The notes beneath the pieces are model-generated. The model did not search any database. It was not told the DNA's origin and saw nothing but the letters and a program-made list of their open reading frames with translations. Positions 19,211 to 57,500 of a DNA stretch of 64,000 nt are shown here, one piece after another (the stretch's first letter is position 1; the number at the start of each line of letters is the position of its first letter). The position numbers and the translations under genes are program-made. The stretch is from Botryllus schlosseri (taxonomy: Eukaryota): contig CM119372.1 in NCBI GenBank assembly GCA_051294905.1, positions 2,730,001-2,794,000 of the forward strand, given 5' to 3'.

Positions 19211-22200
19211 GGTTGCCCGACATATGAGCATGCGACACAATGCAAAACGACAGTTGAGCATGCGACGCTACAGCATGAGGACCCATTAGCATGGTAGCAC
19301 ATGAGCATTAGGGACACGTGAGCATGGGGACACATGCGCATGGGGACATATGAGCATGTTGAAATATGAGCAAGGGGACACATGGGCATGGGAACAGTTT
19401 AGCGTGCGACACTTGAGCATGGTTACACATTAGCATGGGGACTAATGAACATGGTTACATATGGGCATGGTAACACGTGAGCATGGGGGCACATAACGAT
19501 TGGGACACTTCCGCATGTTAACACTTGCGCATGGTGACATATTAGCATGGTGACAAATGAGCACGCGGACACTTGCGCATGTGACACTTGAGCATCAGAC
19601 ACTTGAGCATGCGACACTTGGGCATGCGACACTTGGGCATGCGGCACTTGGGCATGCGGCACTTGGGCATGCGACACTTGGGCATGCGACACTTGGGCAT
19701 GCGACACTTGAGCATGCGACACTTGAGCATGCGACACTTGGAAATGCCACAATTGAACATGCCACAATTGAGCATGCGACACTTGAGCATATGCGACACT
19801 TGAGCGTGCCACATTTTAGCATGTGCCACATTTTAGCATGCGTCACTTGAGCATGTGACACTTGAGCAAGTTAGCTTGTGTTACTGATGGAATTTGTTGT
19901 CACGTGGTGCAAAAAAACACGCTGTTATAAGCACCACAACATGCTTTTATTAATAAATGAAATAACTCGATTTCACGGCTAGCTTCGACTGCGGTTAGTG
20001 AAACATGACATCAGTGGAAATTGCTGTCTGTATATTTCAATCCTGCACATCACAAGACTGTGCAGTGTGCATGTGCATACCCAAGCAGAATGAAGTTTGT
20101 TGTCGATGTGGGGACGCCACGATACTGGATATAGCGTTTGTTCTGAAAGTAGATTCTAAACCAGTGATTCCTAACCCGGCTAACCTTCTTGCGGCTCTGA
20201 TAGACCCCTGAATATGCCACTAAAATATTATAAACAGTTGCTGATGTTTGCCAAAGGCCTCTTCTGAAAACGGAGAAAGAGAATTTTTGCAGAATAGCGT
20301 CGAAACCATGGATTTATATCCGTCAGAAAATGATATATCCTTAGTTCTGATGGTCATAGACCTTTACAGATTGTCTCTGTGAAGAGTAACTTTCGACACA
20401 ATTTTGCTGGCATCAAAGTATCGGCTCATAGTCAAGTATAAATTGCAATATTACCAATATTACTCAGCGTATAATCCCAATCAAACTTGTGCATTAACTG
20501 CTGAAATGTATGAAGAGCTATTACATAACGTTATATATAGTATACTGTAGTGATCATGCATTTTTAGTATATTTCAGTGTATAGCACTCGCCAGTCTTAA
20601 TCTAGCAATGCTAAAACAACCGATATAGCATCTATAGAAGTCTATATGTGCATCGTACATGCCTTTGAATTAGCTGGACGGTGAGATCCAGAGGTAGGCT
20701 ATAGCTATACTGACTTGTTACCAGAAGTTGAAAACCTTTCACAAAGCGAGCTGAGCCAAGTGTCACATTTATCTTGCGTTGTTGAAATGTAAGTACATGT
20801 GGTATGGCCTTTTTGTGATTTGTATGATTGAGATCGCATCAATGTAGGGCACTATTCCGACGTTAGCGTTGAATATAGTATTAAGAAAAATTCCGGCCCG
20901 CCAAAAAGTTGTGCACTCGGAATTTGGCCCGTGACTAGCAAAAGGTTGCCGACCCCTGCTTTACTCGATAGATTAGACAGCTTGATGACTGCTTGCAGAT
21001 GTCTGCGGTTTTGTTAATTGCTCGCGATCTGGCAATCCGCGGGTCTGGGTGTGATGTTGGTTGCCTAATATTGCCTTCAATTACGTCAACACATTATATT
21101 AGAATTATACGCTGGATGTATAGACGAAATAACACCGCTCAATAACATGACTATTTGACATACTGTAGTAGCCAAAGCAAATATTTTCAAATAATGAAAC
21201 ACCAGACTTCATCCTGAAGTTTTCAGGCATAAGCACAAGCTATTTATTGGATTACTGATGATGGGTATTGGTACCGTGTTGTTGATATTTCCGCCATACA
21301 CAGGGACGGACGGTTTTATCAACTGTATTGCGATGATCTAACATTGCGTACATTCATAAATCGCCAGGTCATCTACCATCGTGTATTGCATTTGTCCGCA
21401 TCGCCGAAGATTCGGTTCTTGCTAGGATTGCAGTCGACGAGCATGTCCACATTCAAGTCGAAATACAAGCAATTACTACTAAATAAATACAGTCCATCCT
21501 CAAAATTACCGGACCACGACTGACCTATCGATCTCGCTTCCCATGACATGCCGCCCTATTTATTGTCGCTTTCTTTTTCTATACTATCTTCTTTACTTTC
21601 ATTCAGTGTGCATGCCTCCTCTTTACATCGCCTAGGCCAAGGTGGGTGTCAGATTCCATAGACTACTCCTTGTCGCTTCGACATCTTCCTGTCTTTTCAT
21701 TGTATCGCATTTTTTGTGGTGTATTGAACTGATAAAATTGCTAATAAACCAATGATGATGATGATGATGATGGAGGATCGCTATTGTAGACAACAGCTTG
21801 TGTGTGGTTTTTCAGAAACAGTCATCGTCCATTCGTTTGTACATATCCTGATGCTACGTTTTATATTAAGTGATAAAACAGAGCGTCGTGAGGAATTAAC
21901 CGATTTTGCGAATCCATCGGAAACCTTTCTGGTGAAAAATGTCCGCCGATTTGGCAATAGCCTACGCAACCAACGATGAAGCCATACGGCGCTAGAACAT
22001 GATTTCCTTCTTATAACGGTGCTATATATTACTGTTGAAATTGTGAATGCATGCACCAAACATGCTCACAGTGCAATTTCCGCAATATATTCAGGGTCAA
22101 ATCGTAAAAAAGGGAATGAGTAAGGCCTTGAGTCTGCCCACGGCTTGACTCGGAAAACGCTTGCTCAACGCCGTATTTCGAGATCGACTGGCATTTCGGC

Positions 22201-23449
22201 GTTTAGCATTTTGACACCACGAGACCCACGTTTCGGGCACCACGCGACTCCTTGTAGGTACTGACTGCGATAAAACCTTGAAATAAAATAACCGCCACAT
22301 GTTGACCAAAATGTTCAACATTGTTATGACCACTGTCCAGGCGCCGAAAAGACCAGCGCTCGCAGCTTGAACCTAACGTATAAATTGAGACCCACAAAAT
22401 AAAATAATAAGTGCCGTGTCGAATTGCGAATTTGGAATTGCTTTCGTCTCACGAAAGGATATATCCTTTTAGTTCGTCTGGTGTAAACGATTCCAATATA
22501 TGTGGAGCAATGACAACCTTTATCGCTTTACCCCGATCTTTGGAGCTTTTCAGACAAATCCATATAGTCACAGACCATGTACCCACCCACTCAATCAATT
22601 TGCCACTTTCCTCGCGCGGCAATCAAATTGGTTACGCGCTAATATATGGTCACATGCCCAAGTGTCACATGCCCAAATGTCGCATGCTCAAGTGTCGCAT
22701 GCCCAAGTGTCGCATGCCCAAGTGTCGCATGCCCAAGTGTCGCATGCTCAAGTGTCGCATGCCCAAGTGTAGCATGACCACATGCCCAAGTGTCGCATGC
22801 TCAAGTGTCGCATGCTCAAGTGTCGCATGCTCAAGTGTCGCATGCCCAAGTGTCGCCAAGTTTCGCATGCTCAAGTGTGGCATGCTCAGGTGTCGCATGC
22901 TCAAGTGTCTGCATATCCACGTGTCCCATGCCCAAATGTCGCATGCCCAAGTGTTGCATACTCAACTGTCGCATGCTCAACTGTCCCATGCTCAAGGGTC
23001 GCATGCTCAAGTGTCGCAGGCTCAAGTGTCTGCATATCCACGTGTCGCATGCTCAAGTGTCTGCATGTAGACGTGTCGCATGCGTACATGACCCCATGCT
23101 CATGTGCACCTTTGCTCTTATGTCCCCATGCCCATGTGTCCATATGCGCATGTGTGCCCATGCTCTTGTGTCCCCATGCTCATGTGTCGTCAAGGCTCAT
23201 GTATCGCATGCTCATATGTCACCATGATCAAGTGGTACTTATTAAATTGTCACCATGTTGATGTGTCCCTATGCTCACGTGTATCCATGCTCGTGTGTCC
23301 CTATACTTATGTGTCCCCATGCTAATATGTCCTCATGTTAATATGTCCCTGTGCTGATATGTCTACATGCCCCCGAGTCGCCATGACCAAAAGTCGCTAT
23401 GCTCAAGTGTCGCTTGCTATTGTGTCGCATGCTAATATGTCCACGGACC
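19211..23449. mobile_element. 4.2-kb foldback/MULE-like element with long arms of 15-bp repeats (GCATGCGACACTTGR)n
   Basis: Same termini as 5248-5498, reversed. Arms 19211-~19870 and ~22650-23449 are inverted. TSD GATACGAGG/GATTCGAGG. Confidence 0.8.
21508..21771 (+). mobile_element. 3'-end fragment of the same CR1/L2 LINE as 541-1697
   Basis: Near-identical reverse complement of ~541-797, ending in (ATG)7. Confidence 0.9.
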
Positions 23450-29900: not shown

Positions 29901-30968
29901 ATGAAGGAATTGAGACCTCACCACGAAATCCATTTCATCCTGTGGTATACATAACCACTATTCTAGAATAACTTCAAATTGCGATGCTAGATAAAAAATG
30001 ACTAGGCTGGACGTGATATGTTCATTGTTCATTCAAATGATCTTCATTTCGGTACCATAAATGTTGCGATCACACCAAAATTGTCGTCGGAAGCGTTTTG
30101 TGGGAAAGGGATTTTCGGCACTCGTTCATATCAAATTGAAATCGCGGATTTCCAAGAAACGAACGAACATCAAGTAGCCTACTTCAAGAAATACAGCAGC
30201 AAAATTAGCTTTGAAATATTGAAAGTCTACCTAATTTCTACATAAATAGTATGATGTTATTTTCAGGAAAAGTCATTTTGTTGCTGTTTATCACAATCAC
30301 AATCAGTTCATATATGCACAAGAGATCACGGCTGCACCATAATTGGGCTAAATTTGAACCAAACTTCCAGGGGGTCCGCGGGGGTCCGTGACGGTCAAAA
30401 AGGGGTCCGCGAAGCCAAAAAGGTTGAGAACCACTGGTCTATTCAGAAAAACTAATGTCATTTTCGGATTCAGCGACATCAGAATGCCCTAAAACCGTAG
30501 CATACAAAGATCCGTAGCATACAAAGAGAATTTTACCTATGTCACAATTTGCGTATTTTTAGCACTTTTCGAACCAAAAATATGGAATATTTAAAAAAAA
30601 TCGAGCCAATTCAGAAAAACTAATATCATTTTTGGATTCAGCGACCTAAAAATACCCTCCACTGTTGAATCTTTCTTGGCACCAAAATGTGTGTTGACCA
30701 GTGTAATTTTCGTTGATAAATTATTTCTAAATGGCAAAAGTGCATAAGTTTGATACTCGAAAAAATCAATCTCTCCCTACTCGATTTGGCCATTGTCATT
30801 AACACCTGATTCAGATCCCACTTCTCGAATCATTGTGCTCAGCAGTCCTAGTCCTAGTAAAAAACTCTCGTTTTTCAGATGGACAGAGAGAAGCAGAAAC
30901 TGAAAAAGGAAGAGAGGAAAGAGAAAGAGAAAAAGAGAACCCAGAAGAAGGAGAGATCCGGAAGGTAG
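23963..30968 (+). CDS. CCDC43: Coiled-coil domain-containing protein 43; exons 23963-24130, 25812-25884, 26593-26912, 30879-30968 (216 aa)
   Basis: All introns are GT-AG and in phase. FDDWLELKLAELDVDAEVYGSYIKGVL..DALEGVL / KRALLDKY / LFQNVN / ERKEKEKKRTQKKER match recalled CCDC43 motifs. AATAAA at ~31508. Confidence 0.92.
24330..24663 (+). mobile_element. Retroelement (LINE/SINE) 3' end with (ATGTT)n tail in CCDC43 intron 1
   Basis: CATTGTGTGTGACTTGTTCAGATC..ACCATGTTATGTTATGTTATGTT. Reverse-strand copies at ~19120-19205, ~32392-32455 and ~61650-61700. Confidence 0.65.
27874..30703 (+). mobile_element. CMC-Chapaev3-like non-autonomous element in CCDC43 intron 3, with nested hAT MITEs
   Basis: CACTGGCCAACA...TGTTGACCAGTG with TAA TSD. 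Transposase-like scrap FYRTREKEILPYFSQLDEL/YCKDIEGLLLKM at ~28145-28240. Confidence 0.75.
28628..30436. mobile_element. hAT-Charlie MITE containing another hAT MITE (~28848-29697)
   Basis: Exact TSD GTCTATTC; reverse-oriented relative of 9908-10795. Inner element CAGGGGTGACCAACC...GGTTGGCCATTCCT. Confidence 0.85.
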
Positions 30969-32489
30969 TCTTCGGAAAGTTTTTGGCGCCCCGCGACCAC
31001 GAGATCTTGTACATCTTGCCGCCTAGAAAATGTGCTTTTTTGGAAAGCAGTCCGTTGCCGCCATCTTGTTGCTTTGATCATCTTTAGAATGTCCTCATTT
31101 CTAGGAAATTTATCTCGACACTGAAATCGCAAATTCCAGTACTCGATCATTCTGCCCGGCCAAAACTACTACTATGGTATGCATGGCCTTGCGAATCGCT
31201 AAGTATAGGCCCTATCGGTTTTGTGTTCTTTCATACTCCTTAGGTGAATTGTATGATCAACTCTGGCTACCGTTGATTGGTGGTGGACGGTTTATGTACC
31301 TCAAACATTTGTATATATTCGTTGTTCATGCCATATCCGCCTATCGCAGGATTACGTGAAAGCTGATTTTTCAATTGCAGTCTCTTGAGCACGATAATTT
31401 TGTATAGTAATGAATGAATTTTAGGCCAATTGCTTACATCCAACTGTCCGACGTGTGTTGACGCTCATAGCATCACACGATATCTGAAATTTACAAATTT
31501 TTGTTCGAATAAATATGTTTTGATCTGACGTTGGTTTCGACGACTCCAGTCAACAGGCGTGTATGAACGCGACCAGGGATGGAAATAGTGTATCTGAGAG
31601 AATCAATTGCGAAATTTCGAGTCAAGCATTCGAGCACCACCCATTTCTAGGGCTGATTTTTTTCGAGTACTGAACTAATACGCTCACTATCAACCAGAGT
31701 TATACTTCCAAAACTGTTTTCCACAGTTGGAAGCTGTAAACCTGGATTAGTCGTATCGCGGTGTGCGATACAAAGCTACCTGCGCACGGTAGTGGAAATG
31801 GCATGTCTGCGAATGTGATCAACTCGCACCATGATCGCAGAGCGCAAATAAATTGGTGCGGTCGATGAATAGCATATAATCTCTAACATGATGTAAAACT
31901 GGCATTACTTCTTTGTAGTCTCATAAAAGTTACAGGATTGAACTGTTCTGTTCATATCATTCATACGTAGGGTTACCATAAGAGGATTTGTCCTTGTTTT
32001 TTCTATAAATTGAGTGTCCTCGGAGGACGCCTACATGTCCTCTTTTTGGGGAATTTGTCCTCTTATACTGCTTCGGTTTATTAGTTTATCAGTTCAATAC
32101 ACCACAAATCTGCGATACAATGAAAAGATAGGTGAGTGTCGAAAGGACTTTGGGTAGTCTTTGGAATCAGACACCCAACTGAGCTTAGGCCAGGGCTGGG
32201 CAACATACGGCCGTAGCAGGAAATTTGTGCGGCCGTGAGCACGTAATTCAATTAGTAGGTGTTGGCGGTCGTTGACTTGAAAATTGAAATCCTGAAATTT
32301 TCGTCGCGCCAGGCGAGGTTCAATGCGACTTCATTTTTCGATTTTAATATAGTAGCGCCCTTTGCAATCTGAGCCTCGGAGTACAGATGCGAACATAACA
32401 TGGTTGGGATATATTTTTGATCTGAACAAGTCACACACAATGTACAATGCGAACAGCGAAGGAAAATAGAAATACCTACTTGGAACCGT

Positions 32490-34423
32490 GTAGGGGAGAT
32501 GTGGTACCGATGAATCACTGGGACCGAAAATACTTGAACAATTCTCCATGATAATTCCATGATTACACTCCGTGAATTTGTCTGCAAGTACATGCTGGCA
32601 GAATCTTTCCTCACATGCTAAAAAATTCGACTTGCGTGAGTAATGGGGTCTGTGACGAATGATTTACGTTTTAGGGGGTGTACAGTAAATTTGGATCGAC
32701 ATTTGCATTTTTCTATATCACCTTTCAGACTAACAAACCCCCCATAATTTTTGATGTGAAGTATAGGGCTTGTATCAGTGTACATAATGGCACATATATT
32801 TTGAATCAATACCATCCTTGAGTGGACTATTTTCAAGTCAATTACAATATTTATGGGGTGGGGGACCAATGGTACCATAGCCAAATCAAGCAAAATAGAT
32901 GGACCAACTAATCACTTATCATCAAAAACTCGCCTACATATATATAGGCTGTAAATCATAGTTACCTGCGGTGTTTTATCGCTATTACGAGGTATTTGAA
33001 AGTCAAAATGTCGATTTGCGGGTAATATGTATCTGGCATTAATTTTGTAAGTTTGGGCGTAAATCAAAACATGATTTTATGCCAACATTTGAGTTGATAA
33101 AATCTATTTTATTTTTGAAAGTTGCGACGAAACATTCTTCATTGGCTTGCTGTAGCTTAGATTATAGTAGGGGAGATGTGGTACCGATGGATCAAAAATT
33201 GGAAAATGATCGCTGGCCCCAAAATGTTCCGCCGAAAACAGCAGATCTTCTGCTGGCTCAGCACTTTGATACAAGCTCTACCTATCGCGCACATATACAT
33301 GAATATCCGTCTTTTCAAAAAATATTTATGGACGTTCAAAATTTGTTGCTCGAACGTATCATCGGTCCCCACCCGGTGGGTCCAATGGCACACAACCCGG
33401 GGACCTATGAGACATATACTCTCAGAAACTCAGATGTGACAATTTTTCTTGCTCATTTTTATATATTCTAAGCTACAGCAAGCCAAAAAAGAATGTTTGG
33501 TCGCAACCGTCAAAAAATATAATAAATATTAACACAAATGTTGCCATAAAATCACGTTTCGATTTAGGCTCGAACTTATAAATTTGAGGGTATATACATA
33601 TTGCCCGAAAATCGACAGTATGACTTCCAAATACCTAGTTATAGCGATAAAACATAATATGCAATTATTACATTAAGAGTTTCTGTACGTAGGCCTGTTT
33701 CAGTTGTTTCATGACTAGTATGCTTGATTATTTCGCTTGATTTGGCTATTGTATCATCGGTCCCCACCCTACGAATTTTACACATGAATCGAAAAAAATT
33801 CCACTCAAGGAAGGTATTGAAAAAAATAATAGGTGCCATTATATAGCCTGATACAAGCTCTACACTTCACATTAAAAATGATTGCTTGTTTTTTCGTGTT
33901 GAAGATTACAAATAAAAATGTATATGTCAATCTAAATTTAGTTTACACCCCCCAAAACAGAAAACATTTGTCAAAGACCTCATAGTTCGTGCACGTCGAA
34001 ATTTTTTGTATGTGGGGAAAAATTTTGCCATTATGCAATTGTAGACAAGTTCACGGAGTTTAATCATGGAAGTATCATAGAGAATTTTAAAAGTATTTTC
34101 GGTCCCAGTGATCTATCGGTACCACATCTCCCCTACACAACAAAACAAGTTAACAATTTTGAGTTTTTGAGCGTATGTCTCATAGGTCCCATGGTCGTGT
34201 GCCTTTGGACCCACCGGGTGGGGACCGATGACACGTTCGAGCAACAACTTTTAAACGTTTATAACTATTTTTGGAAAAGGCGGATATTCATGTACATGTC
34301 TGCGATAGGTGGAGCTTGTATCGAAGTGTTGAGACAGCAAAAGATCTGCTATTCTCGGCTGAAGATTTGGGGGCCAGATATCATTTTGCAATTTTTGATC
34401 CATCGGTATCACATCTCCCCTAC
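32490..34423. mobile_element. ~965-bp TIR element (GTAGGGGAGATGTGGTACCGAT ends) with a second copy inserted inverted inside it (33167-34136)
   Basis: Four termini in the order A,B,A',B'. The outer halves (~677+287 bp) rejoin to match the reverse complement of the inner copy. Confidence 0.75.
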
Positions 34424-34794
34424 TCATCACGAAATATATTTGTTTCTGGGACGTTTGGGAGATTGAAGCGGTGCAATAAAAATTCAATAAAAAGGAGCAA
34501 GCATATCGCAAGCATACGAGTAGGTTACCGCAGGGATATCTAGTTTCCAGATATCCCTGGGTTACCGTTACAGGGTGTGATTTATGCTGCTCACAAGGTA
34601 AACTGCTAGTAAGAAAAATGTTGTATTTCCTTCCTATCAGGTACATGATTTTAGCTAGAGCAGGGGTTCTCAAAGTGTGGGCCATGGCCCACTGGTGCGC
34701 TACAAGAGCATTTGGGGTGGGCCACAGAGCTATTTGGAAAATTTCAGAAATAATGTAAGTTTAGTAATATTTGTTTTGTTAATCGCTTAAAAAT
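33234..34794 (+). repeat. Left copy of the 1,561-bp direct duplication flanking the LINE
   Basis: Matches 39996-41556 at a constant offset of 6762; identical ORF translations. Confidence 0.95.
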
Positions 34795-34926
34795 TATTAT
34801 TATTATTATAGATGGTAAAAAATGGAAGTGGCGCATATCACCGATAAAGGTCTGGTGCATCACGTGCAAGGTTAATCGTAAAGAATAGTCAATTCAGGAC
34901 AAATACAAATGAAAAGGTTGAGAAAA

Positions 34927-37900
34927 TCATAGCAATATGTTACAAGAATCCACAAATTCGATGACAGCCGTAAAAAGTAGCGGGTTAACTAAAAGGTTAT
35001 AAGTACTGAACGCAAGATGTAGTCCCTCACAATAGTGTTTTACCGTGCGTCTATGGTGAGCGTATTTACAACATGACAAAAGAAAATGTTCGACGGTGTC
35101 TGGTACGAAACAGAAATCACATAAAGGAGAGTCAATACACCCAATTTTAAACAGATGCACATTCAGCCGGCAATGACCGGAACGAAGGCGAAACAAAATA
35201 TTCTCATGCCGGCGCGATATTCCATCTGACGATATTCGGTCGAATATGGAAGTTTGAAAAACTCGATAGTGACATCCTTTTTCATTGTTTCTGTATTCCG
35301 TGTCCCATCGCGATCGGATGGACTTCCGAATCGCGCTTTTCGCATCTGAAAACTGAATCGTTGGTGACCAAAGAGGTGGAGGTTGAGAGGCTGCTGTCCG
35401 CGCTAATTCATCCGCAATTTCATTTCCGTAAATGCCGCTGTGACTGGGTATCCAGCTGATGGCTACGTCGATGCCTGCCCGTTTGATCTGTTCAAGATAA
35501 GGATACATTGCATTAAGGATATGACTAGGCATGTCTAGCGGCTCGCCAATGGTCTGTATTGCGCTGAGGCAATCACTAAGTATGACGAATTTGTCTGTGC
35601 TCAAGCCGTTCTCTATTATCCATGAAAGTGCATACATGATCGCATCCAATTCAACAGTAATTACCGACTTCAATGGTGAGCAAGTTTGCGAATATTTCAT
35701 TAGCTTCTGGGGTATGTAAACACCGTAACCAGTGGCAGTGGACGTTTTTGAGCCGTCTGTGTATACTTCAATATATTGGTCACAGACTTCGAACAGAAAG
35801 TCTTTGAAGATAGAATTTACTTTATGTGGGGTATCCAGTCTGGATATCACGCCACACAGTTGCGTGTGGACGTTTAGTGGGCTAACCGACCACGGCTCTC
35901 GAAAAGTAGGATAGCGCTGGCGAACACTGAATTCCGCCAAGATTGGCGACTTGGAAACTATATTGAACGTGACGAAATTCGGCTTAGTGAGACTGTATAT
36001 TTCTTCCCATGAATCCTCTAATAGTCCTAACGTCGGGTGGGATCCGGGTGGATGTCTAAGAAGATGACAACGGTATACGCAACAAAGATACTTATGCCTC
36101 AAATGGAGAGGAAACTCATTACAAGAGGCCTCAAGTACGCAAATAGGTGTACTGCGCATGGCGCCGCAGCAGAGACGTAAAGCCTGGTTCTGGACGACTT
36201 CGATTTTGTTGATGTGGCACTTAGGGGCAAAAAAATACGCTGGCATCCCATAATCTACGACGGATCGTATAACTGACCTGTATAGGCGGAGGAGAGATCT
36301 CCTGTTCGCACCCCAATTAGTGCTTGTCAATGCACGGAGTATGTTTAATCGTTGACAGCATTTCTTGACGATGTTTGTTATGTGATCCTTGTATGACAAG
36401 GTCTTGTCGAATGTAACCCCCAAGTATTTAAAACTGTTAACGAGCTCAATTCTGTGATTTTCGATCGTCAACGATATTTCTGGAATATTACGTTTCTTAC
36501 TAAAAACCAAGGCAACCGATTTGCTTTTTGAGAGAGTAAACCCCCATTGATCACACCATTTCTGGACTGTATCGAGAGAGGTCTGAAGGGATGATACAAG
36601 AGAGGGTATTGAGAGTCCACTTTCCCAGATTGCGGAATCGTCTGCGTAGAGGCCAATCTGGCTGGGTATCAAAGGTGGCAAGTCGTTGAGCATGACAGTG
36701 AAAAGCAAAGGACTAAGAACACTACCTTGTGGAATTCCGTTTTCTAGGTGGCCGGTGTCCGATAATGAGACCCCTACTCTAACCTGGAAGGTTCGGCCGT
36801 TGAGAAAGTTTGCTATCCACTTCAACATTCTACCTCTAATGCCAAGTTGCGAAAGCTTGTGTAATAATCCGCTACGCCACACCATGTCATACGCGCGCTC
36901 GAAATCCAAAAACACGGCCACTGTTGAACGCTGGTTATTTATCGCTTTGTAAGCTGTATCATGCATTCGCATGATGTGATCGAGGGTGCTACGTCCTTCC
37001 CGGAAACCAGATTGAGAATGATGGAGCAGACTTTGTGATTCTAGGAACCAACGCAATCTGCGGGCAATCATTACTTCGAACACTTTCGACAGATGGCTCG
37101 TAAGCGATATTGGACGGTAAGATGTTGGGTCAGACGTATCCTTTCCGGGCTTCAGTATCGGAATAACGATAGAGTGTTTCCAATCACGAGGAATCTGACC
37201 TTTTATCCAGGATTTATTGAACAGATTCAGTAGCCGCGACGTGGCAAAGCGAGACAAGTTCTTCAGCATGGCGTAACATATCGAATCCTCTCCCGGGCAC
37301 GAGTCCCTACGGCTATGCACCGCAGAACGTAGTTCGGCGAGGCTGAAAGGCATGTTGATTGCAAGTTCGTTACCACTTTCGAATCCTGGAATGATATCAT
37401 TGCTTCTCATGAACTCCAACTGATTAGATTGGAATGTTGAGGAGTAATTATGATTGCTAGAGACGTCGGAAAACACTGATGAGAAAATTTGTGCTTTAGA
37501 TCTGTCGTCATGGTAACTGTTGTCCCCGGAGTACATCGTCGGCATGGTTCGAAGTGACGTGGAACCGGACATGGCTGCAATTGTTTTCCAAATCCTAGAA
37601 GAGCTCGTTTTCTGATTTACCGAATCACAGAAAGCCTCCCAGCATTTTCGTTTAGCTGATAATATTACTTTGCGGCATTCTGATCGCATTTTCTTGAAAT
37701 TTATCACCTCTGTCATGGCAAACGTTCTCTTCATTTTTTGAAAGGCGGCTTTTTTGCGGCGTACTGCGCGGGCACAGTCTTCGTTCCACCATGGGACTGG
37801 TATCTTAGTAGAAGCGCGCGATCGAGGTATTGAAATTTTTGCTGCCATTTTCAGACAATTTGCAATCTCGCTGTTAAGTTGTTCCACATCACCTGAACTA

Positions 37901-38658
37901 AATTCACCTATCATGTTGTCCACCGATTTAGAGAATTCCAACCAGTTTGCTCGTTGCAGGCACCACTTTGTTGGTCTTGTTTCACTTCGGTTTTGACCTA
38001 TATTACAATAGGTGAGAACTACGAAGTGGTCGCTTCCTAAAAGGTGTGGTGAGACCGTAGTGCGGCATTTGTGGGCGATACTTGGTGAAGCAAGCGTCAT
38101 ATCGATGAGAGACCATCGATGCTCGGCGTTTACGGACATATTGATCCTGGTTGGTTGAGAGGTGTTTACTGCAACGATGTTGTTTCTGTCTATAGCTTCG
38201 TAAAGACGGCTACCACGCTGGTTGTTTGTATGACTCCAAGACCAATGGTGGGCGTTGAAATCTCCGCATACGACACTGCGAGATGGTAGGCAGTCGAGAA
38301 ATGACAAATCATTCGTTTCTAGTCGACAGTCGGGAGACACGTAGACGTTGAATATCGCCGTGGTCCCAACTTTTACACAAAGTAGTTCGAAACATTGCGA
38401 CGTTATAGATGGGTCCTCAGTTGAGCTTAGCGCTTCGGAGACGAATGTTGCGAGACCACCTTTATGGACGGTATTGTCCCTTCTAAATAGTTTGTATCCT
38501 TTTAATTTTGGCGTGTATTTAGCAATAAGATGGGTCTCCTGAAGTACTATAACGTCCGGTTTATGATCAAGGGATGTCAGGAAATTTTTGAACTCGTATA
38601 GCTTGCGGTAAATACCGCGGCAATTCCATTGTAGCACTGCGAGTTGTTTATGCGTCAT
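34927..38658 (-). CDS. LINE ORF2: APE endonuclease, reverse transcriptase, RNase H, C-terminal zinc finger (1243 aa, intact)
   Basis: QWNCRG, LQET, GDFNAH, SDH (APE); YRPISL, PQGSVLSP, YADD (RT); YTDGSK, ILSDC, WIPSHSGIYGNEIAD (RNase H); CDFC..DTVEHFLLSC. Confidence 0.95.
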   Translation of the reverse strand: MTHKQLAVLQWNCRGIYRKLYEFKNFLTSLDHKPDVIVLQETHLIAKYTPKLKGYKLFRRDNTVHKGGLATFVSEALSSTEDPSITSQCFELLCVKVGTTAIFNVYVSPDCRLETNDLSFLDCLPSRSVVCGDFNAHHWSWSHTNNQRGSRLYEAIDRNNIVAVNTSQPTRINMSVNAEHRWSLIDMTLASPSIAHKCRTTVSPHLLGSDHFVVLTYCNIGQNRSETRPTKWCLQRANWLEFSKSVDNMIGEFSSGDVEQLNSEIANCLKMAAKISIPRSRASTKIPVPWWNEDCARAVRRKKAAFQKMKRTFAMTEVINFKKMRSECRKVILSAKRKCWEAFCDSVNQKTSSSRIWKTIAAMSGSTSLRTMPTMYSGDNSYHDDRSKAQIFSSVFSDVSSNHNYSSTFQSNQLEFMRSNDIIPGFESGNELAINMPFSLAELRSAVHSRRDSCPGEDSICYAMLKNLSRFATSRLLNLFNKSWIKGQIPRDWKHSIVIPILKPGKDTSDPTSYRPISLTSHLSKVFEVMIARRLRWFLESQSLLHHSQSGFREGRSTLDHIMRMHDTAYKAINNQRSTVAVFLDFERAYDMVWRSGLLHKLSQLGIRGRMLKWIANFLNGRTFQVRVGVSLSDTGHLENGIPQGSVLSPLLFTVMLNDLPPLIPSQIGLYADDSAIWESGLSIPSLVSSLQTSLDTVQKWCDQWGFTLSKSKSVALVFSKKRNIPEISLTIENHRIELVNSFKYLGVTFDKTLSYKDHITNIVKKCCQRLNILRALTSTNWGANRRSLLRLYRSVIRSVVDYGMPAYFFAPKCHINKIEVVQNQALRLCCGAMRSTPICVLEASCNEFPLHLRHKYLCCVYRCHLLRHPPGSHPTLGLLEDSWEEIYSLTKPNFVTFNIVSKSPILAEFSVRQRYPTFREPWSVSPLNVHTQLCGVISRLDTPHKVNSIFKDFLFEVCDQYIEVYTDGSKTSTATGYGVYIPQKLMKYSQTCSPLKSVITVELDAIMYALSWIIENGLSTDKFVILSDCLSAIQTIGEPLDMPSHILNAMYPYLEQIKRAGIDVAISWIPSHSGIYGNEIADELARTAASQPPPLWSPTIQFSDAKSAIRKSIRSRWDTEYRNNEKGCHYRVFQTSIFDRISSDGISRRHENILFRLRSGHCRLNVHLFKIGCIDSPLCDFCFVPDTVEHFLLSCCKYAHHRRTVKHYCEGLHLAFSTYNLLVNPLLFTAVIEFVDSCNILL

Positions 38659-39995
38659 GGCTGCCAGTATCCTTTCCCTGCTGATATTGGTCCACCAAAT
38701 TTGACGAGCCCTGGAGCGCGGTAGGGGAGATCTCGTGGCCTAAATAGCTACTGGACACTTTGGCCACTATGTTGAATATATCGGTGTCTCCACACTTGGA
38801 TGCAGATATTGTTAGCTGAACAATTTGTGCAATCATTGCTAGCAGTTGTACGGTCTCGATTTTCGGTACTTCATTGTCATTGCTTCTAGGTACAGTGCTC
38901 ACGGGGTTCAATGACACCTGTGGAGATGGTGACATATTTCCACGTTGAAGATGTCTAAGATCGCCATCGTTTTGTGCTAGACGCGCTGCGGGGCCGCGAA
39001 CTTTCTTACTATTTGGGGTAGAGGCTGCTTTGTGTGCGTACGAGACTGCACTGTTATCACATTGAATATTTGGTGTTGCTGGCTGCGTGCGAATGAAAGT
39101 CCTAGCTTCGTCGTATGTAATGTTCGAGCGTTCTTTCACGACCTGAATCTTGGCCTCTTCTCTATACGTCGGACATCCTGCGTAAGCGGCGCTGTGCGAT
39201 TGATGGCAATTAAGGCATTTCTTATCATTGGGACAAGATTCGTATTTGTGGTCTCGACCACCGCATTTTGTGCAGCTGTGTTTACCTCTACATGCTTTCG
39301 CTGTATGTCCGTACCGATTGCAATTAAAGCACCTTGTTGGAGGCGGATTGTAAGTATGTGTTTTGAAGCGCAAATACCCGAAGGTAACATACGACGGAGT
39401 CTGCTCGGAATCGAAACCAAGTAGAACAGTCATGCTAGCCACAAGATCCTTATCAGACCTCCTTTTAAGTCGCTTCGTGAACGTGACCTGGAAAGAGTTC
39501 AACTCCTCTAACAATTCGGAATCCGATATGTCAAAGGGTACGCCCTTTATAACACATCGGGAAGCGCACGGTTTACGATAATCACGAATCGAAGCCTTGA
39601 TCGGTATGCTGGTTTGTGTGACGGTGTCCTTGATGTGGTCAGATTCTAATATTAGTTTAACCTGCCTTTGATTGTGGCATTTTATAGCAATGTCTCCGGA
39701 CGGTAAGGGTTTTATTTCGTCGTAACTGCCTATAAGGGAGTGCAGAGCCCTGTTTACCTGGGTGGGATGATAGCGGGTCATACGTCTATCCTGCCCGGAT
39801 ATTATAATCTGAAGATCGGTTCTACCTGCAGGAGTGGACTGTTGAGGTGTGATTACGGCAGCAGTCACCGATTCGGCTGCTGAATAAGATGCCGTGGTCT
39901 GGGTTGAAGTATTTTTATCATTACCATTACTGGCGCAAGGAGCCGTGGAATCTCTATTGTTAGCCGGTCGGAAGGTTCGATGTTCAGGAGGGGTG
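38648..39995 (-). CDS. LINE ORF1, gag-like nucleic-acid-binding protein with CCHC knuckles
   Basis: RCFNCNRYGHTAKAC, CTKCGGRDH, CLNCHQSH..AYAGCP. Overlaps ORF2 by 11 nt. First ATG is at 39781 and the frame is open to the junction. Confidence 0.9.
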
Positions 39996-41556
39996 GAAAA
40001 CAGCAGATCTTCTGCTGGCTCAGCACTTTGATACAAGCTCTACCTATCGCGCACATATACATGAATATCCGTCTTTTCAAAAAATATTTATGGACGTTCA
40101 AAATTTGTTGCTCGAACGTATCATCGGTCCCCACCCGGTGGGTCCAATGGCACACAACCCGGGGACCTATGAGACATATACTCTCAGAAACTCAGATGTG
40201 ACAATTTTTCTTGCTCATTTTTATATATTCTAAGCTACAGCAAGCCAAAAAAGAATGTTTGGTCGCAACCGTCAAAAAATATAATAAATATTAACACAAA
40301 TGTTGCCATAAAATCACGTTTCGATTTAGGCTCGAACTTATAAATTTGAGGGTATATACATATTGCCCGAAAATCGACAGTATGACTTCCAAATACCTAG
40401 TTATAGCGATAAAACATAATATGCAATTATTACATTAAGAGTTTCTGTACGTAGGCCTGTTTCAGTTGTTTCATGACTAGTATGCTTGATTATTTCGCTT
40501 GATTTGGCTATTGTATCATCGGTCCCCACCCTACGAATTTTACACATGAATCGAAAAAAATTCCACTCAAGGAAGGTATTGAAAAAAATAATAGGTGCCA
40601 TTATATAGCCTGATACAAGCTCTACACTTCACATTAAAAATGATTGCTTGTTTTTTCGTGTTGAAGATTACAAATAAAAATGTATATGTCAATCTAAATT
40701 TAGTTTACACCCCCCAAAACAGAAAACATTTGTCAAAGACCTCATAGTTCGTGCACGTCGAAATTTTTTGTATGTGGGGAAAAATTTTGCCATTATGCAA
40801 TTGTAGACAAGTTCACGGAGTTTAATCATGGAAGTATCATAGAGAATTTTAAAAGTATTTTCGGTCCCAGTGATCTATCGGTACCACATCTCCCCTACAC
40901 AACAAAACAAGTTAACAATTTTGAGTTTTTGAGCGTATGTCTCATAGGTCCCATGGTCGTGTGCCTTTGGACCCACCGGGTGGGGACCGATGACACGTTC
41001 GAGCAACAACTTTTAAACGTTTATAACTATTTTTGGAAAAGGCGGATATTCATGTACATGTCTGCGATAGGTGGAGCTTGTATCGAAGTGTTGAGACAGC
41101 AAAAGATCTGCTATTCTCGGCTGAAGATTTGGGGGCCAGATATCATTTTGCAATTTTTGATCCATCGGTATCACATCTCCCCTACTCATCACGAAATATA
41201 TTTGTTTCTGGGACGTTTGGGAGATTGAAGCGGTGCAATAAAAATTCAATAAAAAGGAGCAAGCATATCGCAAGCATACGAGTAGGTTACCGCAGGGATA
41301 TCTAGTTTCCAGATATCCCTGGGTTACCGTTACAGGGTGTGATTTATGCTGCTCACAAGGTAAACTGCTAGTAAGAAAAATGTTGTATTTCCTTCCTATC
41401 AGGTACATGATTTTAGCTAGAGCAGGGGTTCTCAAAGTGTGGGCCATGGCCCACTGGTGCGCTACAAGAGCATTTGGGGTGGGCCACAGAGCTATTTGGA
41501 AAATTTCAGAAATAATGTAAGTTTAGTAATATTTGTTTTGTTAATCGCTTAAAAAT
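39996..41556 (+). repeat. Right copy of the 1,561-bp direct duplication
   Basis: GAAAACAGCAGATC...ATCGCTTAAAAAT, matching 33234-34794. Confidence 0.95.
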
Positions 41557-43629
41557 AAATTCTTATTAGTTGATTATACGTAGGCTACATAAAGCTTTTC
41601 ATCCGACTCTGATGAGACGTAGTGGTAGCCTACATATGGAGTCAGCATTTCAAGTCGAAAATGGGAGGCAGAAACGGCGGCTTTTTCCACTGGCTATGAC
41701 TACCTATGGCTAACAGCAACTAATATAAATTGATTCTCTGCTTTCTTTCGCAAAACAATCGTCATATTTTCGTAATAGATGTTTGATTAGCGCGAGGCAC
41801 GGGGATAGTAGTAATTACCATGATTACAGACTTGCATTTGAATAGTATATTCATATTGAAATAAACCCAATTATTTTCGGCTGACACTTGTCAGGGGTAT
41901 AATCGTCAGCAACTATAGTAGAGAATTGGAAAGAACATTGTATATCAACAATCGTATCACAAAATATGACGTCACCAGCATTACATTACATTGCATTGCA
42001 TTACAACATTACACTTACATTTGCAAGTTACTGTACGCAAATTTTACCCCTTTAAGGGATATTAAGTATGAACCGCATGGGTATAATTTAGGGTCGACAC
42101 GGTGCGAGAGCTATCTGTCAGTATGTAATATTTGTTGAATTGATTGCAAAAAATCCTGCGATAATATTTATATATCCAAGGTCACTGTGTTGGGTAGTGT
42201 AGTTAATAAGCGAGACACGCAGAAAATATGGCTTGATCATGCGAATCAGCCGACCTTTGGCTAGAATTCACGATAAGATTTGTACGAATGTTTTTTTTTT
42301 CTGGAAAACATGGGCGAAGACCGTTGGGATGGATGTGCGACGAGTGAGCTCAGGCCCATATGAGACTCATTCATTTCGAGGCCAACCCCTTCTGCGTTTT
42401 GGCTGACATACTGCTGATAAAATGCGGTGCCGCTGATAAAATACGGTGCCCAAAACAGTAGCAGCGACAAAACCTTGGCAAAAATGACCGTCGCTGGATG
42501 GCCAAACATTTCTATATGTTGGCACGAAATGGTCCCGTTCTTGCAATCTGAGTAGACAGTAGCACAAATTCGACACGCAGAGAAATTTACTTCACCCTAA
42601 TTTGAAATCGCGTGAGTCAGACATATTTCATAGAGCTGTGTTTGGTAGAATTGTAGTGTGCGCGTTCTGTATGTAATACATGTCCGTAAAATCGTAGCAT
42701 AATACTGTAATACTAAAAATGAATACCTTTTCATGGGTGCTGCTCGCGTCGCGAGATACCACAGAAATTCAGATTTTGGTGGTAGTCTAAAATGCTGCTT
42801 AGAGGTTATTAAACTGTTATTAACTTTCAAGTTAAATTGAGCTAAAGAGACGAACAAACAGTATCTTGACTTTATTTGCTCTTCTCATATACTCGCGAGA
42901 CAGAAAATGGGAAATCGAAACCAAAACAGAACTCAAGGTTGGAACAACGTATTATAAGGTAGCGAGCTCTAATGTGTCTACTCTGCTTCATGATGTTGAA
43001 CCTTATTTTCCAAGACATCAAGCACAATCTTCAACACAAGCATGTGGATTTTTCACTGTTTCACCGTTTCATCCTGCGGGACCTTTGTGTCATTTCTCAA
43101 AAACGATTTCTACCAGAAAGCGTTTTTCACTCGGGGAAAATACGCTGTATTTTGGATATGCGTGCAGAACCATTCTTAAGACCTGGCCATTCAAGCACTA
43201 TTGTATGCGTTATTGTATAAAACCCAACAACTTGTTTGGCAGAGAAGCGTTTTAGTGAAATAGTTGAAATCAAAACGAGGGAAAAGAGTTGCCTTGTTAA
43301 TGAGACACTTCACGGCCTAAAACTATATAGTAGCCAATTTGTTGCACATCTGAACAGAATGTTCATATGTATCTTCATCTTCTTATTGTATATCAATTTT
43401 CTGTTGGCTTGTGCGAATGAAATTTATTTTCCATAAAAAGTGCGAATTAAGCTCAAAAAGGTTGAAAAGCACCGACGTATACTAATCGCGCAAAGTGATT
43501 GCTTTTCGCCTATACTTGGGGCCTTTTAATATGGGATAGGGCGCCATGCCATGCAGTGACGACGTATGATACGACGAGCTTCTTGTTCCGAGAGCATCGG
43601 CGCATCCCGAGGATTCGGCGGGATGTCAG

Positions 43630-44400
43630 AGACAGTTTTCGCCAATCTGTCCGCTTTTTCATTGCCGTGAATGCCCACGTGGCCAGGGATCCAGAGGAAT
43701 GACACGCTGACGTCGCGTTGTCCGAGTTGCTAAAGAGAGAAAAAAAATTCATAAACGAGCCTATGAATAGGATACAAGTTGGAATTACTTATGCAAACTA
43801 GGGCACTTGAACAGTCTGACAAAATGAGAAATTTGTTTGACGAGGAGCTGTTTCTGGAGATCCAGCTCAGAGCTTGGCCGATTGCTATTAGCTCCGCCGA
43901 ATGAACCATTGAACAGGCCTCCGTTACTGCCACATCAAGTGAAGGGACGCAAAAAGCCGCTCCACCCCCAACTGGATATTTAGACCCATTCGTATATATG
44001 AGCACGTGTTCATCGTAATGGTCGAAAACATGACTTAACCAAATCTGGTTGTAGGCACTGAAAACGTTCCGTGAAGACCTCTCTGCGAGGAAAGAGAAAT
44101 CCACACTTGGTTGATGCAGCAACCAAGGTGGAGACAAGAGTAACCGGTACCTGTCCTATCTGAAACGATTAAATAGCGATGATTTAGTATAAGTGTTGAA
44201 CGTTTGAAAGTCTGGATTCACGAAACTGTCAATATCCTGCCATGTTTCTTCAATAATTTTGCAAGTGAAAGAGTTGTTCGGATCCTGGTTCAACAGGTGA
44301 CAGTGGTAAGTCATAGAAATACCCAAATGTTCTTTGTTGCAGTCTATTATTCTAAGCGAAAGAAAGTCAAAATAGATTATTTGGTAAATACCGTCAGGAA
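43630..44400 (-). pseudogene. Degraded I-group LINE ORF2 fragment (RNase H region)
   Basis: IYTNGSK..HSAELIAI..FLILSDC, then frameshifted WIPGHVGIHGNEKADRLAK. Confidence 0.8.
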
Positions 44401-46697
44401 ATGGAATGAACAATAACTCAAACTTTTACATAACATGACTTTTCGATTCAAGCTCAAAATTACTCCATAATCCCATTAGTCGGCCAATAACCTCATTTGT
44501 TGGCATATATAGCGGATATTACATGAAACTGATGAAATTCAAAACGCTGTGAAGACAGACATCTACCACCGTTGGCATTGCAATAAAGAAAACTTGCTTG
44601 TATCACGATTAAAGTACACGAATATTTTAGGCATTCAATGCGACATAGAGCAATGATCGAATAATATCGTTTTTGCTGAGTCGTGTCACAAATTATGTCG
44701 CAAATTGGAATCCGGACATCTGAATTCTACGGTCTTGCCGGGAACAACACATTGGTGGCAATACGTTTCTGAATTAATTTAGACGCTATGGCATCGTCTA
44801 GCGAGAATGTGTGTGGTATTATTCTGAAGTTTGATCATTTCATTGTTGGTGAGCTATAGAGCTCAATGGTGACTACAGTGGCTATCAATAACCGGCATGA
44901 TTTGTTAATGAGTTTGTCGTTTGGTGGTAGTGCTGATTTTGTCAGTGATTCAAATTAATTTAGATTAAGAATTTAAGGAATGGATTATTGTATTGTTCAG
45001 CCCATAATTCCTATGATTCTAACTATTCATTTACAATCCAAGCGAGAGTAAACTTGGGTGGTTACGGACCAGGGCAATGCTTTTGAACCTCTGGGATACA
45101 TGCTTCTGCGGATGAAACAAAATTGCGGCGCGGATGACAAGTCTGTGCCGAAAGCGGCTTTTTAGTGGCACGCATAAAGTACATCAGTCCGCCTGAACCA
45201 GCGGCACGCGGGAAAAAATAACGCAAATTGACTTTTTGCTTTCTTTCGCTGAACAGTCATCATATTTTCGTAATAACAGATGCATTATCACGAGGCACGA
45301 ATATGGTAGTAAATTCCTTCATTACAAACTCACATTGGCAAGTTACTGTAACGCAAATTATTATCCCTTTTCAAAAGTATGGGTCGCAAAAAGGCAAAAT
45401 TTCGGTCGCCACGGTACCAAAGCGATCTGTTGTATGTAATATTTATTCAATATCTTGTAATTTCTTTTACAGCATCGTAGAGAAAAATGAACAAACTATA
45501 GTCAAACAATTTGAAGTTTGAAGTTTGATTTCTCTAATTAATGGACACGCGACCAACTTCTTGCATTTTCGAATTGACGTATAAAATTCTAGTGTAGCCT
45601 ATACGTGGTGGACCGGAAGGAAACTGGCCACGGACAGATGATTAGGAACCACTGCAGTCTAGTCAATAAGCGAGACTCACAGAAATTTGATTTGATCATG
45701 AAAATGCACCGCCCTTTGTATTACATTACATTTATGATTAAATTTGTCCGACTGGTTTATGCTGGACGACGCCGTCGATGACCGTTGGGATGCTTTAGTG
45801 TAGGGTTATTGAACGGGCGGGGACGGGCCTTAGATTTATTTCGAAGGCAAATCCTTTTGCATCGGTACACATGAAGACGTGAAGTTTTGGCCAACATACC
45901 GCTAGAAAGGTGCGGTGCCAAAACATCGGTGGCGACAAAACATAGCCCAAATCGACCGTCTCCGGTTGGCCAAAACTTTAGATATTGATATGCTCGGTCT
46001 TCGAAATGGTCGGCAGTCGGCACGGCATAGTCTCGTCCTTGCAATCGGAGTAGACAGAAGTATACAAATGCGACGCGCAGAGGAAAATAATTCACGCCAA
46101 TTTAAATTCGATGCGCGTGCTTTTTGTATTACAATTTTCGGTTGGTTTATGCAGGGGAAAGCACTGGACTATTGGAAACTGTTTCGTAAATCCGTAAATT
46201 GATAGCTCTCCTAGTACACCAAAGTCAGATTTAATCACAAAACACCGACAGTGGCGCTTATCGCCTGTTTAGGCCTTGTGCGCCACGACAATGCATTCGT
46301 AAAGTTCAGTCAGTTTCTTTGCTTTTGTATACTCTGGACGGCTTTCATGCTCGCGCACATCCACTCTTCCATTCGCGCTCACTTTCATGCGTCCTCTTGC
46401 CGGTCTCAGCTGCCGACTTCGGAGCTCGGCTCACTCTTCCTCTGGGCTTTTTCAAGGCGCTACGTTAACAGCGGGATCGGAAAGTCAGATTTATGAATAT
46501 ATGTTATCACGGCGTTCGCGGTCTACCAGGTGCGTTCAATCGAAAATCGTCACCAACGCTCTCCGCATATGTCCATTATAATGTCACATTGTGTTTTCTA
46601 ACCAATCAAACAGTTAGTCAAACGAATAGACCAATTATCCAGTGACAGTTACTGAGCGCAAGTTAGGAGCATATACATACATTCAAACTCATGTACG

Positions 46698-47133
46698 TTA
46701 GAGATGCACGGATCATGGTTTTTTGGGATCCGGATCCCATTCTGTTCGAAAAAATGGAATCCTGATCCAATCCGGATCATGTGTCCGTCTCGAATGTCAA
46801 AATCCGGATCCAAAAATATCCTGTACAATGTTGAGCATCTATCTTCCCCTGCCGTCGAAATCGTTTCAATTACACTTCGGCAATGCATTGAAGTTTTCTA
46901 TTAGGGATTTTTCGAAATAGTGGTGCAATGCCGAAGCCAGCTGAGTCCAAGTTCATAGAAAATATCGCAGTGAACAACGGACAGTCACTTTCATGAACTA
47001 CGAATTTAGAATTATGTCCTAATCCGGATCCGGCTTTTGGGCAAAAATGTGAATCCTGATCTTATCCTGTTCGAGAATAACTTGCCGGATCCCAGCCCGG
47101 TTACAATTGCAAATCCTGATCCTGTACATCCTA
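46698..47133. mobile_element. hAT-Ac-like MITE with GGATCC repeats
   Basis: TAGAGATGCACGGATC...GATCCTGTACATCCTA; TSD unclear. Confidence 0.6.
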
Positions 47134-54500: not shown

Positions 54501-57500
54501 ACGCAACGAACATCATATTTTCGTAAGAAATTGTTATTTTTCATTTTTTTTTAGTCAACACAGTACTGTATAGGTCGAAAAAATTTGCAAAATATCTAAT
54601 TTTCCTGTCCGGTGCTAAATCTTTCAGAATTTTTAAAAAGCGCTTTCGTTTTAGGATCGCAAAATACGTTAACTGTGTTATAGTGATTCATTTCAGACCG
54701 ATAAAGTCGCAAGAGAAATCATTTACAGTTGTATTTAAATCGTCTTAATGTATGTCGTGGTTGTGCAACGGATTCAGTCTTGGTCATTATGACCTCATTC
54801 TACTATTACAAATTTTCGCAAAGCCATAAAATTGAAAAAGTTCTAACATAATGCACAACTTACTAGACATGCAATGGATTATATCGGTGCATAAACTGAA
54901 CTGTGCGTCAACAGAGTGCAAAAAGAACGAAACCATCAAAATGACAGTTTCACACAAAACGAAAACATTTTAATGAATGATTATTACGAGTCAGTGTTAC
55001 TTCTGCTGTTGCCATTGCCCATTTAGATAACAGTTCAGAATTACGACGCTTCACTTTGGACAGGGTCATCATATTGTGCGGTCGAATCGCAGCAGCGAGA
55101 TGCCCGATTGCTCAATTACGAATAGCCTATAAATATTGGAGATAGCTTCGGCATTCCAGAACGTCGGTATTTTGATATCGAACCCCAACCTCTCCCGTTT
55201 ACGCGACTGCACCAGACTTGTACAAACTAAACATTCAGTTACTTCACTGGTTCCCAACGTGGGCAATATCGCCCGCCAATGGACGATTTTGAGAAACAAG
55301 GGGGCAAAAATACCAAATAGGGCGACAATACCAAATGTGGCGACAGAGGGGCGATGGGGGGCGAAAATGATACGACGTACACTGAGATATATTTAAATAA
55401 CATGGCCAAAAAATGCACGTGAAGGCGGCATTTCGTGATCACGATGCAAAAAAGGTTAACTCAACGGAAAGTAGACGAGGAAACTGGTTTCCGATCAGAG
55501 TTGATGAGCTTCTTGGAGGTGCAGAACTTCAATATACAATTAAATAGTATATTCATATTAAAATGAACCCGAATATTTTCGGCTGACAATCGTCAGGGGT
55601 AATCGTCAGCAACTAGTAGAGAATTGGAAAGAACATTGTATATCAACAATCGTATCACAAAACATGACGTCACCAGCATGAAATTTCGAATGAGAGAACG
55701 TTCAATGCACTATTTTTAGGTGGTACACGAACTCCTTTTGTTGACAGAGTTTTGGTTGGTGTATTTTGATAAAAGTTGATTCCAAGGCACACAAATGGAA
55801 ATAAAAATAGTGCATTGAACGCTCTCTGATTCGAAATTTCATGCTGGTGACGTCATATTTTGTGATACGATTGTTGATATACAATGTTCTTTCCAATTCT
55901 CTACTAGTTGCTGACGATTACCCCTGACGAGTGTCAGCCGAAAATATTCGGGTTCATTTCAATATGAATATACTATTTAATTGTAGATTAGAGTTGAGTG
56001 GTTTGACTACACTGATCGGCCCTAATTGCCTGCAACCGTAATGATGGCCAAGAATCGTACGCATGAGTTGAGTAGGATATGTGTGCAATTGACCTCCGCG
56101 GAACCGTAAAGACTGGCCCATGGAACCCCTAGTGTGTGGCAGCCCACCCATTAGCAGAGATGAGCGGATTTGAAGTTTCTATGTTCTAATCCGATCCAAA
56201 TCCGAAGCTTCAATTCCTAATCCCTAATACAGTCCAGAAATTTTGTATATTTCAATCCTAATCTTAATCCTAATTCGATTCAAACTTAGAATTCCACTTA
56301 GAAAGCCTACATCTGATGCCTATAATTTTGTAAAAATGAATAAAACGCCTAATGAGGGTCAAAATACATGAAGTAACTTTGGTAGGACGATAAAGTCTGT
56401 CGCCATTCCCCTCAGGACATCAATATTCCGAAAATCGGTAAATCCAATCCTAATCCTAATCCATTCTTGAAAAAATCTTAAATCTTAATCCACCAAAATT
56501 TTCCAAATCCTAATCCTAATGCTCATCTTAGTCCATTAGAGGCGTATTTGTTCTAATTGTTTATTGTTACTGTGGTAGTGTTGTTATTGCTGAGGCCACC
56601 AAGTGTCTGGTTACGACTAGGTAGTGTGGACACTTGTGGTGTACAGATGACAACGCATATTGCATGAGCGTGTCTCTATTTCTGTACTACCATATAACAC
56701 CTATGTTTCAACAGTAGCCAGGGTTAATCGTCCGAAATTAGAGAATTGAAAATAACGTCGTGTATAATTGAATAGTATATTCATATTGAAATGAGCCCAA
56801 ATATTTCCGGGTAATCGTAAGCAACTATGAAGACAATTAGAAAGAACAAAGTATTTCAACAATCTAGTATCAGCCGAAAATACTCGGGTTCATTTCAAAA
56901 TGAATATACTATTCAGTTGTATAAAAGTTCTGTACCGCCAAAAATCTCTTCAATTTCGTATATCAAACCAAATTAGAATGACAGCTACAGAGTTTCTGTC
57001 ATATTATGTTAGAATTAGATTCACTGATTTCGCAAAAAAAATTGTAAATTCAATTTAATTTTCAGAATTAGAAAGAAATACCAAAATCAAGTTCAGTTCA
57101 TGCGCACGATATCTATAACTGCGTCTCAAAATCCCACACATCAAACGCCATGTTTCTCCTGTTTCTCCACACACAGAAATATTGGGATGAAGGTTATATC
57201 CACAAGATTTTTGTCTTGTGCAAGAGATTTCTGGTCATATACTAATCGTTTCAGATTTCAACAGACTTTATGTAAATCCGGTAGCTTGTGATACGATCTA
57301 ATGCTCGTCTGGCCACCGGATTTGGGCGTTTCGATATGCAGAAGAAGTGGTGGTACAAGTACAACGAAGAATCTGGCGTGATGTTGCTACCGTGTGTGGA
57401 GTCGGCTCTTACCACTTTCCAAATATTCTGCATACGCGGTGTGTATATTCAGGCGGTTCCCGAAAACTCATTGCGAACAGTGGATACCACCCACTCGTTG

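Follow-up and report, generated by a model that had tools for sequence, protein, structure and literature searches.

Kilobase target-site duplications (TSDs) are already known, from the human long interspersed element (LINE) L1. In the accessible portion of one report (PMC5223499), L1 TSDs are usually 5-30 bp long; TSDs of 1,520 and 1,612 bp occur among 17 inserts from XPD-complemented cells, and in cells deficient in nucleotide excision repair (NER) they reach 6,765 bp, all inserts being 5'-truncated. The same portion states that in HeLa cells TSDs of more than 100 bp make up not over 10% of events. Tandem duplications of 1-10 kb at L1 sites have been treated as large TSDs, with break-induced replication as the proposed route (bioRxiv 10.1101/2024.12.14.628481, accessible portion), and an L1-bridged tandem duplication via the sister chromatid has been described (PMC7058536, accessible portion). 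In the I superfamily, the Drosophila I factor is about 5.4 kb long and has two open reading frames (ORFs), cysteine-rich motifs, an APE endonuclease, a reverse transcriptase (RT), an RNase H and 3' TAA repeats (PMC4122939, accessible portion); the median somatic TSD of the I element is 12 bp (PMC8090852, accessible portion). Here we analyse a stretch of 64,000 nucleotides of Botryllus schlosseri DNA (assembly GCA_051294905.1, contig CM119372.1, positions 2,730,001 to 2,794,000; hereafter the window), in which an I-group-like LINE is flanked by two direct copies of a 1,561-bp sequence.

Compared base by base, the segment 33234-34794 agrees with 39996-41556 at 1561 of 1561 bases, with a constant offset of 6762, and the exact match stops at both ends, with no extension either way. 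The LINE between them occupies 5,201 bp on the minus strand. Its TAA-repeat tail begins directly after the first copy, and its ORF1 is open up to the junction with the second. An initial annotation, made from the sequence alone, had claimed this identity and both of these contacts, and all three were recovered. We found no extra short TSD at either LINE junction. The parts follow one another as expected for a TSD, in the order target, tail, element and once more the same target: a direct duplication of the target abuts the tail on one side and the 5' end on the other, without a second short TSD, as in large-TSD outcomes of target-primed reverse transcription (TPRT). We consider it likely that one recent aberrant TPRT event made both the insertion of this 5'-truncated LINE and the 1,561-bp duplication. 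The duplication is a feature of the assembled sequence and is probably real on the chromosome. The parts concerned are the following.

33234-34794, no strand: first copy of the duplicated target (1,561 bp), flanking the LINE on its 3' side and matching copy 2 at 1561/1561 bases
34795-34809, minus strand: TAA-repeat tail, 15 nt; its repeat register runs 2 nt into the target, with a putative priming site on the plus strand
34810-34926, minus strand: 3' untranslated region (UTR) of the LINE, 117 nt long, separating the tail from the stop codon of ORF2
34927-38658, minus strand: ORF2, 1243 aa, uninterrupted; APE 9-214, RT 503-750 with YADD at 671, RNase H 962-1090, C-terminal CCHC motif at 1180
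38648-39995, minus strand: ORF1, 5'-truncated (without start codon and without 5' UTR), with three CCHC-type knuckles, overlapping the start of ORF2 by 11 nt
39996-41556, no strand: second copy of the duplicated target (1,561 bp), flanking the LINE on its 5' side; its first 0-2 nt may be microhomology with the LINE

The duplicated DNA lies within, and between, two other elements, the stretch 34425-34660 between them being unique:

32490-34424, no strand: self-nested, TA-flanked inverted-repeat element, target DNA, with outer parts 32490-33166 and 34139-34424 and an inner inverted copy at 33167-34138
34661-34794, plus strand: left end of a multi-copy element, presumably hAT-like, cut by the insertion and continuing at 41557

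The left end of the duplication falls 68 bp within the arm 33166-33432 of the self-nested element, and this arm aligns unbroken with its partner arm across 33233|33234 (88%). The inner inverted copy (78-88% identical) belongs to the same family as the element that holds it, a family whose depth in run X1 is 3,800-6,600 times single copy, that is, thousands of copies (a rough figure, from summed contig depth). The right end falls 134 bp inside the multi-copy element whose left end is at 34661/41423. The initial annotation had placed the two ends in the self-nested inverted-repeat element and in a hAT miniature element; the first placement and the multi-copy nature of the second element hold, and the hAT label is one we presume from the look of its left end. 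No matching 8-bp TSD was found at a possible right end of this hAT-like element (43455-43475).

To examine the joins, contigs of four runs were compared over 34795-44000; for joints, loose ends and pieces, what is said here and below covers the best 15 of 344, 24 of 2,155 and 24 of 41,494, respectively. The join 41556|41557 is crossed by multi-copy-depth contigs in two other runs (12 and 14 contigs at row 41550), at best 32 and 30 letters from the contig end, and therefore represents the original target. Both outer joins of the duplication are thus original target sequence, and new joins occur only at the two ends of the LINE. The repeat is target DNA rather than a long terminal repeat (LTR), as had been proposed.

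Depth points the same way. In X1 the unique part of the repeat has a depth of 21 against 100-154 for the LINE body, and in X14 of 49 against 430-560; at about one fifth to one tenth of the LINE depth, the repeat does not travel with the element. An LTR or pseudo-LTR is ruled out, since the repeat begins and ends inside other multi-copy elements and has a far lower depth than the LINE; it is also contradicted by the 5' sequence of the LINE family, which continues differently from the duplicated DNA. When the repeat's unique part is set against a unique downstream site, its depth is 1.9 times higher in X1 (20.8 versus 10.7), the ratio in X14 being 1.1. The X1 value fits a duplication but equally two haplotypes versus one, and we did not use it as evidence.

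The LINE itself carries three features of the I group or I superfamily, namely an ORF2 with APE, RT and RNase H, an ORF1 with CCHC motifs, and 3' TAA repeats. The ORF2 domains score above the Pfam cut-offs (PF03372/PF14529, PF00078, PF00075) with their catalytic motifs present. The ORF1 product (P0001) gave no match in Pfam; its CCHC knuckles lie at residues 222, 241 and 260. Judged on this domain architecture, the element is I-group-like. The I group comprises clades such as I, Nimb, Loa, R1 and Tad1; among the 120 protein matches listed, none was a clade-labelled reference protein, the best match being 48% identical. The two ORFs with cysteine-rich motifs, the domains APE, RT and RNase H as well as the 3' TAA repeats are all shared with the Drosophila I factor. 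In contrast to I elements with their median TSD of 12 bp (PMC8090852, accessible portion), the LINE studied here has a TSD of 1,561 bp and lacks a 5' promoter region. At 43559-44332 on the minus strand we also observed the decayed RNase H region of a second I-group-like LINE, with 33% amino acid identity to ORF2.

The initial annotation had called the element intact, which it is not. The ORF1 frame is open from 39994 and its first Met is at 39781, so that 71 codons from the junction are without Met. All nine ORF1 homologues compared (46-52% identical over the searched region) have an initial Met and, within the first 60 residues, a KRK/RKR motif; this basic motif is absent here. A contig of run X5 (record 24) has the same depth as the LINE body (8.85); it runs along the LINE as far as about 39997, beyond which come 76 letters that differ from the window. 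The lack of an early Met, the missing basic motif and this family contig going at least 76 nt further together indicate that the copy is truncated near the start of ORF1, with loss of the 5' UTR and the first ORF1 codons. Since the X5 contig has 9 extra letters (a gap) between 39894 and its aligned end, the 2 nt of microhomology that seem to be present at the 5' junction are tentative. Neither a 5' UTR with an internal promoter nor an ORF1 start codon, as expected of a full-length autonomous copy, is found, and the copy is predicted to have been dead on arrival.

We then considered the age of the two features. The two repeats diverge by less than 0.19% (95% bound), whereas between the LINE copy and the majority sequence of its family in three other runs the difference is 0.3-0.7% (7/2315, 14/3053 and 27/3939 letters in the listed pieces). 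This difference would be accounted for by two steps: an ordinary insertion with a short TSD and, later, in a heterozygote, a microhomology-mediated template switch from the LINE 5' end to the empty homologue 1.56 kb back. Such a switch would remove the 5' end of the LINE together with the short TSD and duplicate the target and, by sequence logic, would yield exactly what is observed, with a LINE truncated at its 5' end and no short TSD. It would also fit repeats at 0% beside a LINE at 0.3-0.7%.

We classified these differences as synonymous or non-synonymous. Of 457 variant rows the 40 with the best support were taken, and 23 of these lie in the LINE. Sixteen of the 23 have a majority letter in every covering run that differs from this copy, and 11 of these 16 are synonymous, where neutrality would predict a fraction of 0.23-0.27 (P 1e-4 to 5e-4; dN/dS 0.13-0.17). 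The differences are therefore mostly inherited from an active source lineage under selection rather than the result of decay after insertion, and therefore the insertion and the duplication can be of the same age; the data are consistent with a single recent event. The two-step history thus gains no older date for the insertion from these differences, and moreover it requires two rare events at one site, while the 5' truncation it would explain is normal for TPRT (all inserts are truncated in the accessible portion of PMC5223499). We regard it as unlikely.

The LINE family is young, with about 9-14 near-full-length copies per sample (depth ratios from summed contig depth, hence rough). In X1 and X14 we also noticed one contig each, at single-copy depth and about 7-9% diverged from the LINE (37504-37850 and 37681-38004), which shows that an older LINE subfamily exists in the species.

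A single TPRT event could have proceeded as follows. The endonuclease would nick the plus strand after 34794, where the last 2 nt of the target continue the TAA register and could pair with the UAA tail of the RNA. The RT would copy 5.2 kb and halt near the ORF1 start. In place of a nearby second nick, the partner to which the cDNA end was then joined, with 0-2 nt of microhomology, would be a DNA end lying 1,561 bp further along. This distant end would most likely arise in replication, by sister-chromatid bridging or by break-induced synthesis, which are models proposed for L1; we favour a replication-coupled route because no unwinding of 1.5 kb is needed. The 1,561 bp between the nick and the distant end would thereby be copied twice. 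Such a distant second-strand joining or repair event, already suggested in the initial annotation, is the likely cause. The statement there that normal TSDs are short also agrees with the values for I elements and L1 given above.

The tail and junctions also bear on another order of events, in which a tandem duplication came first and the LINE then landed on its exact junction, or patched the causative break without its endonuclease. L1 events that are endonuclease-independent or tailless do occur (PMC5223499, accessible portion); here, however, a tail is present and in register with the target, and neither junction has a short TSD or a deletion. Landing on the exact junction base is improbable unless the two events were coupled, which amounts to the single TPRT event that we favour. 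We therefore consider a prior duplication extremely improbable.

The initial annotation had further suggested that a hairpin guided the duplication start. This idea was abandoned: inverted arms already take up 79% of the positions in the 2 kb left of the nick, and the predicted fold has 33234 paired in the middle of a stem rather than at its end or at a loop.

In its architecture the locus resembles the human L1 large-TSD inserts, which are also 5'-truncated, with the tail at one breakpoint, the 5' end at the other and a direct target duplication of 1-10 kb; the length of 1,561 bp matches the reported L1 cases of 1,520-1,735 bp (PMC5223499; bioRxiv 10.1101/2024.12.14.628481; PMC7058536). Unlike human L1, the element here is I-group-like, with an RNase H and a TAA tail, and it was found in an invertebrate genome assembly, presumably in heritable form, whereas the L1 reports concern cultured cells and tumours. 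In literature searches of partial coverage, kilobase TSDs turned up only for human L1 (cell lines and tumours), and none for an I-group element or a natural invertebrate allele. The insertion with its duplication is probably a rare accident, a large-TSD outcome of TPRT, rather than the product of a new mechanism.

Several points weigh against a single recent TPRT event. Five of the 16 majority differences are non-synonymous, and the test uses the 40 best of 457 rows; were all of the 0.3% acquired after insertion, zero differences between the repeats would have a probability of about 1e-4, which would make the duplication younger than the insertion. The precedents come from human L1 in cultured or tumour cells and not from the I-group clade in a germ line. 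The three repair routes are indistinguishable from one allele. Finally, among the best joints, loose ends and pieces of the contig comparison, no read or contig shows either LINE junction of this copy; the raw reads of X16 (Hi-C) belong to a different organism and gave 46 partial reads, of which none fell on the LINE.

This last point bears on an assembly artefact, in which a LINE-bearing and an empty haplotype, or a chimeric read, were joined to give a false second copy. The 5' junction, on which such a reading depends, is without read evidence within that comparison, and the perfect identity of the copies would also be expected from polishing or from reuse of the same reads. Moreover, haplotypes identical over part of the duplicated DNA exist (record 8 of X1, 296 nt, 0 differences). 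On the other side, the overlap at the join 39995|39996 is 2 nt at most and there is no gap, the window containing 0 N. Assembly programs rely on long overlaps to connect sequences, and Ns normally mark the joins made in scaffolding. The join also falls near the LINE 5' end, where a biological truncation would, and besides the 1,561-bp pair no second repeat of at least 100 bp at 99% identity or more was found in the window. Another run differs at 41353, which lies in the repeat's unique part; a match between two haplotypes is therefore not a given there. On balance we judge an artefact improbable, and keep to the TPRT event.

It had also been raised that long duplications might be a trait of the LINE family. 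We collected 96 related loci, the best 80 of 519 from metagenome contigs and 16 from genome contigs; none of them matches the window at the DNA level, and when metagenome contigs were searched for exact 21-nt matches to the 3' UTR of the LINE, 0 were found. Of these loci, 53 reach the end of ORF2 with flank and 20 have a simple-repeat tail; among the 96, no exact upstream match of more than 7 nt was found. A TAA tail together with kilobases of flank at either end is present in only two independent insertions, L034 (identical with L057) and L044, which come from distant relatives at 37-47% amino acid identity. Neither has a long duplication, but a short TSD was likewise not found, so they say little about the LINE family here. 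What the depth data rule out is only that every LINE copy carries along the same 1,561-bp segment. That long TSDs are frequent in this germ line, in the LINE family or host-wide as in NER-deficient human cells, duplicating hundreds to thousands of bases, seems to us very doubtful; most sister copies of the LINE are expected to have short TSDs. In the same search, animal-type LINE ORF2 sequences (L081-L091, 23-33% identical) were seen on short contigs of bacterial genome bins, probably as host contamination.

Other features of the window were recorded in passing. A repeat family of about 150 bp occurs at 41835-41987, 55537-55685 and 55835-55983, and has the highest depth within 34795-44000 (277,843 in X1 against about 11 for single copy). 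An Rfam scan of 30000-47000 gave 0 matches at E up to 0.5, and a hammerhead-looking stretch near 41600 was dropped for lack of an Rfam match. At 12628-14372 on the plus strand, broken frames end in a Ulp1 protease (Pfam Peptidase_C48, E 1.7e-14) with a weak PHD finger, probably a decayed DNA transposon. The 3' part of another LINE (an RT fragment) lies at 780-1850 on the minus strand, with the same 23-bp minisatellite on both sides (402-540 and 1699-1876), and two long minisatellite arrays of 15/16 bp lie in opposite orientation at 19218-19871 and 22638-23444.

If real, the locus would be a natural, probably heritable kilobase TSD made by a non-L1 LINE, and it would mean that LINEs can seed small segmental duplications in invertebrates. 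The LINE is predicted to be removable by recombination between the repeats. Only transposon DNA has been duplicated, so no functional effect is expected; the importance of the finding would be far greater if sister copies of the LINE behaved alike.

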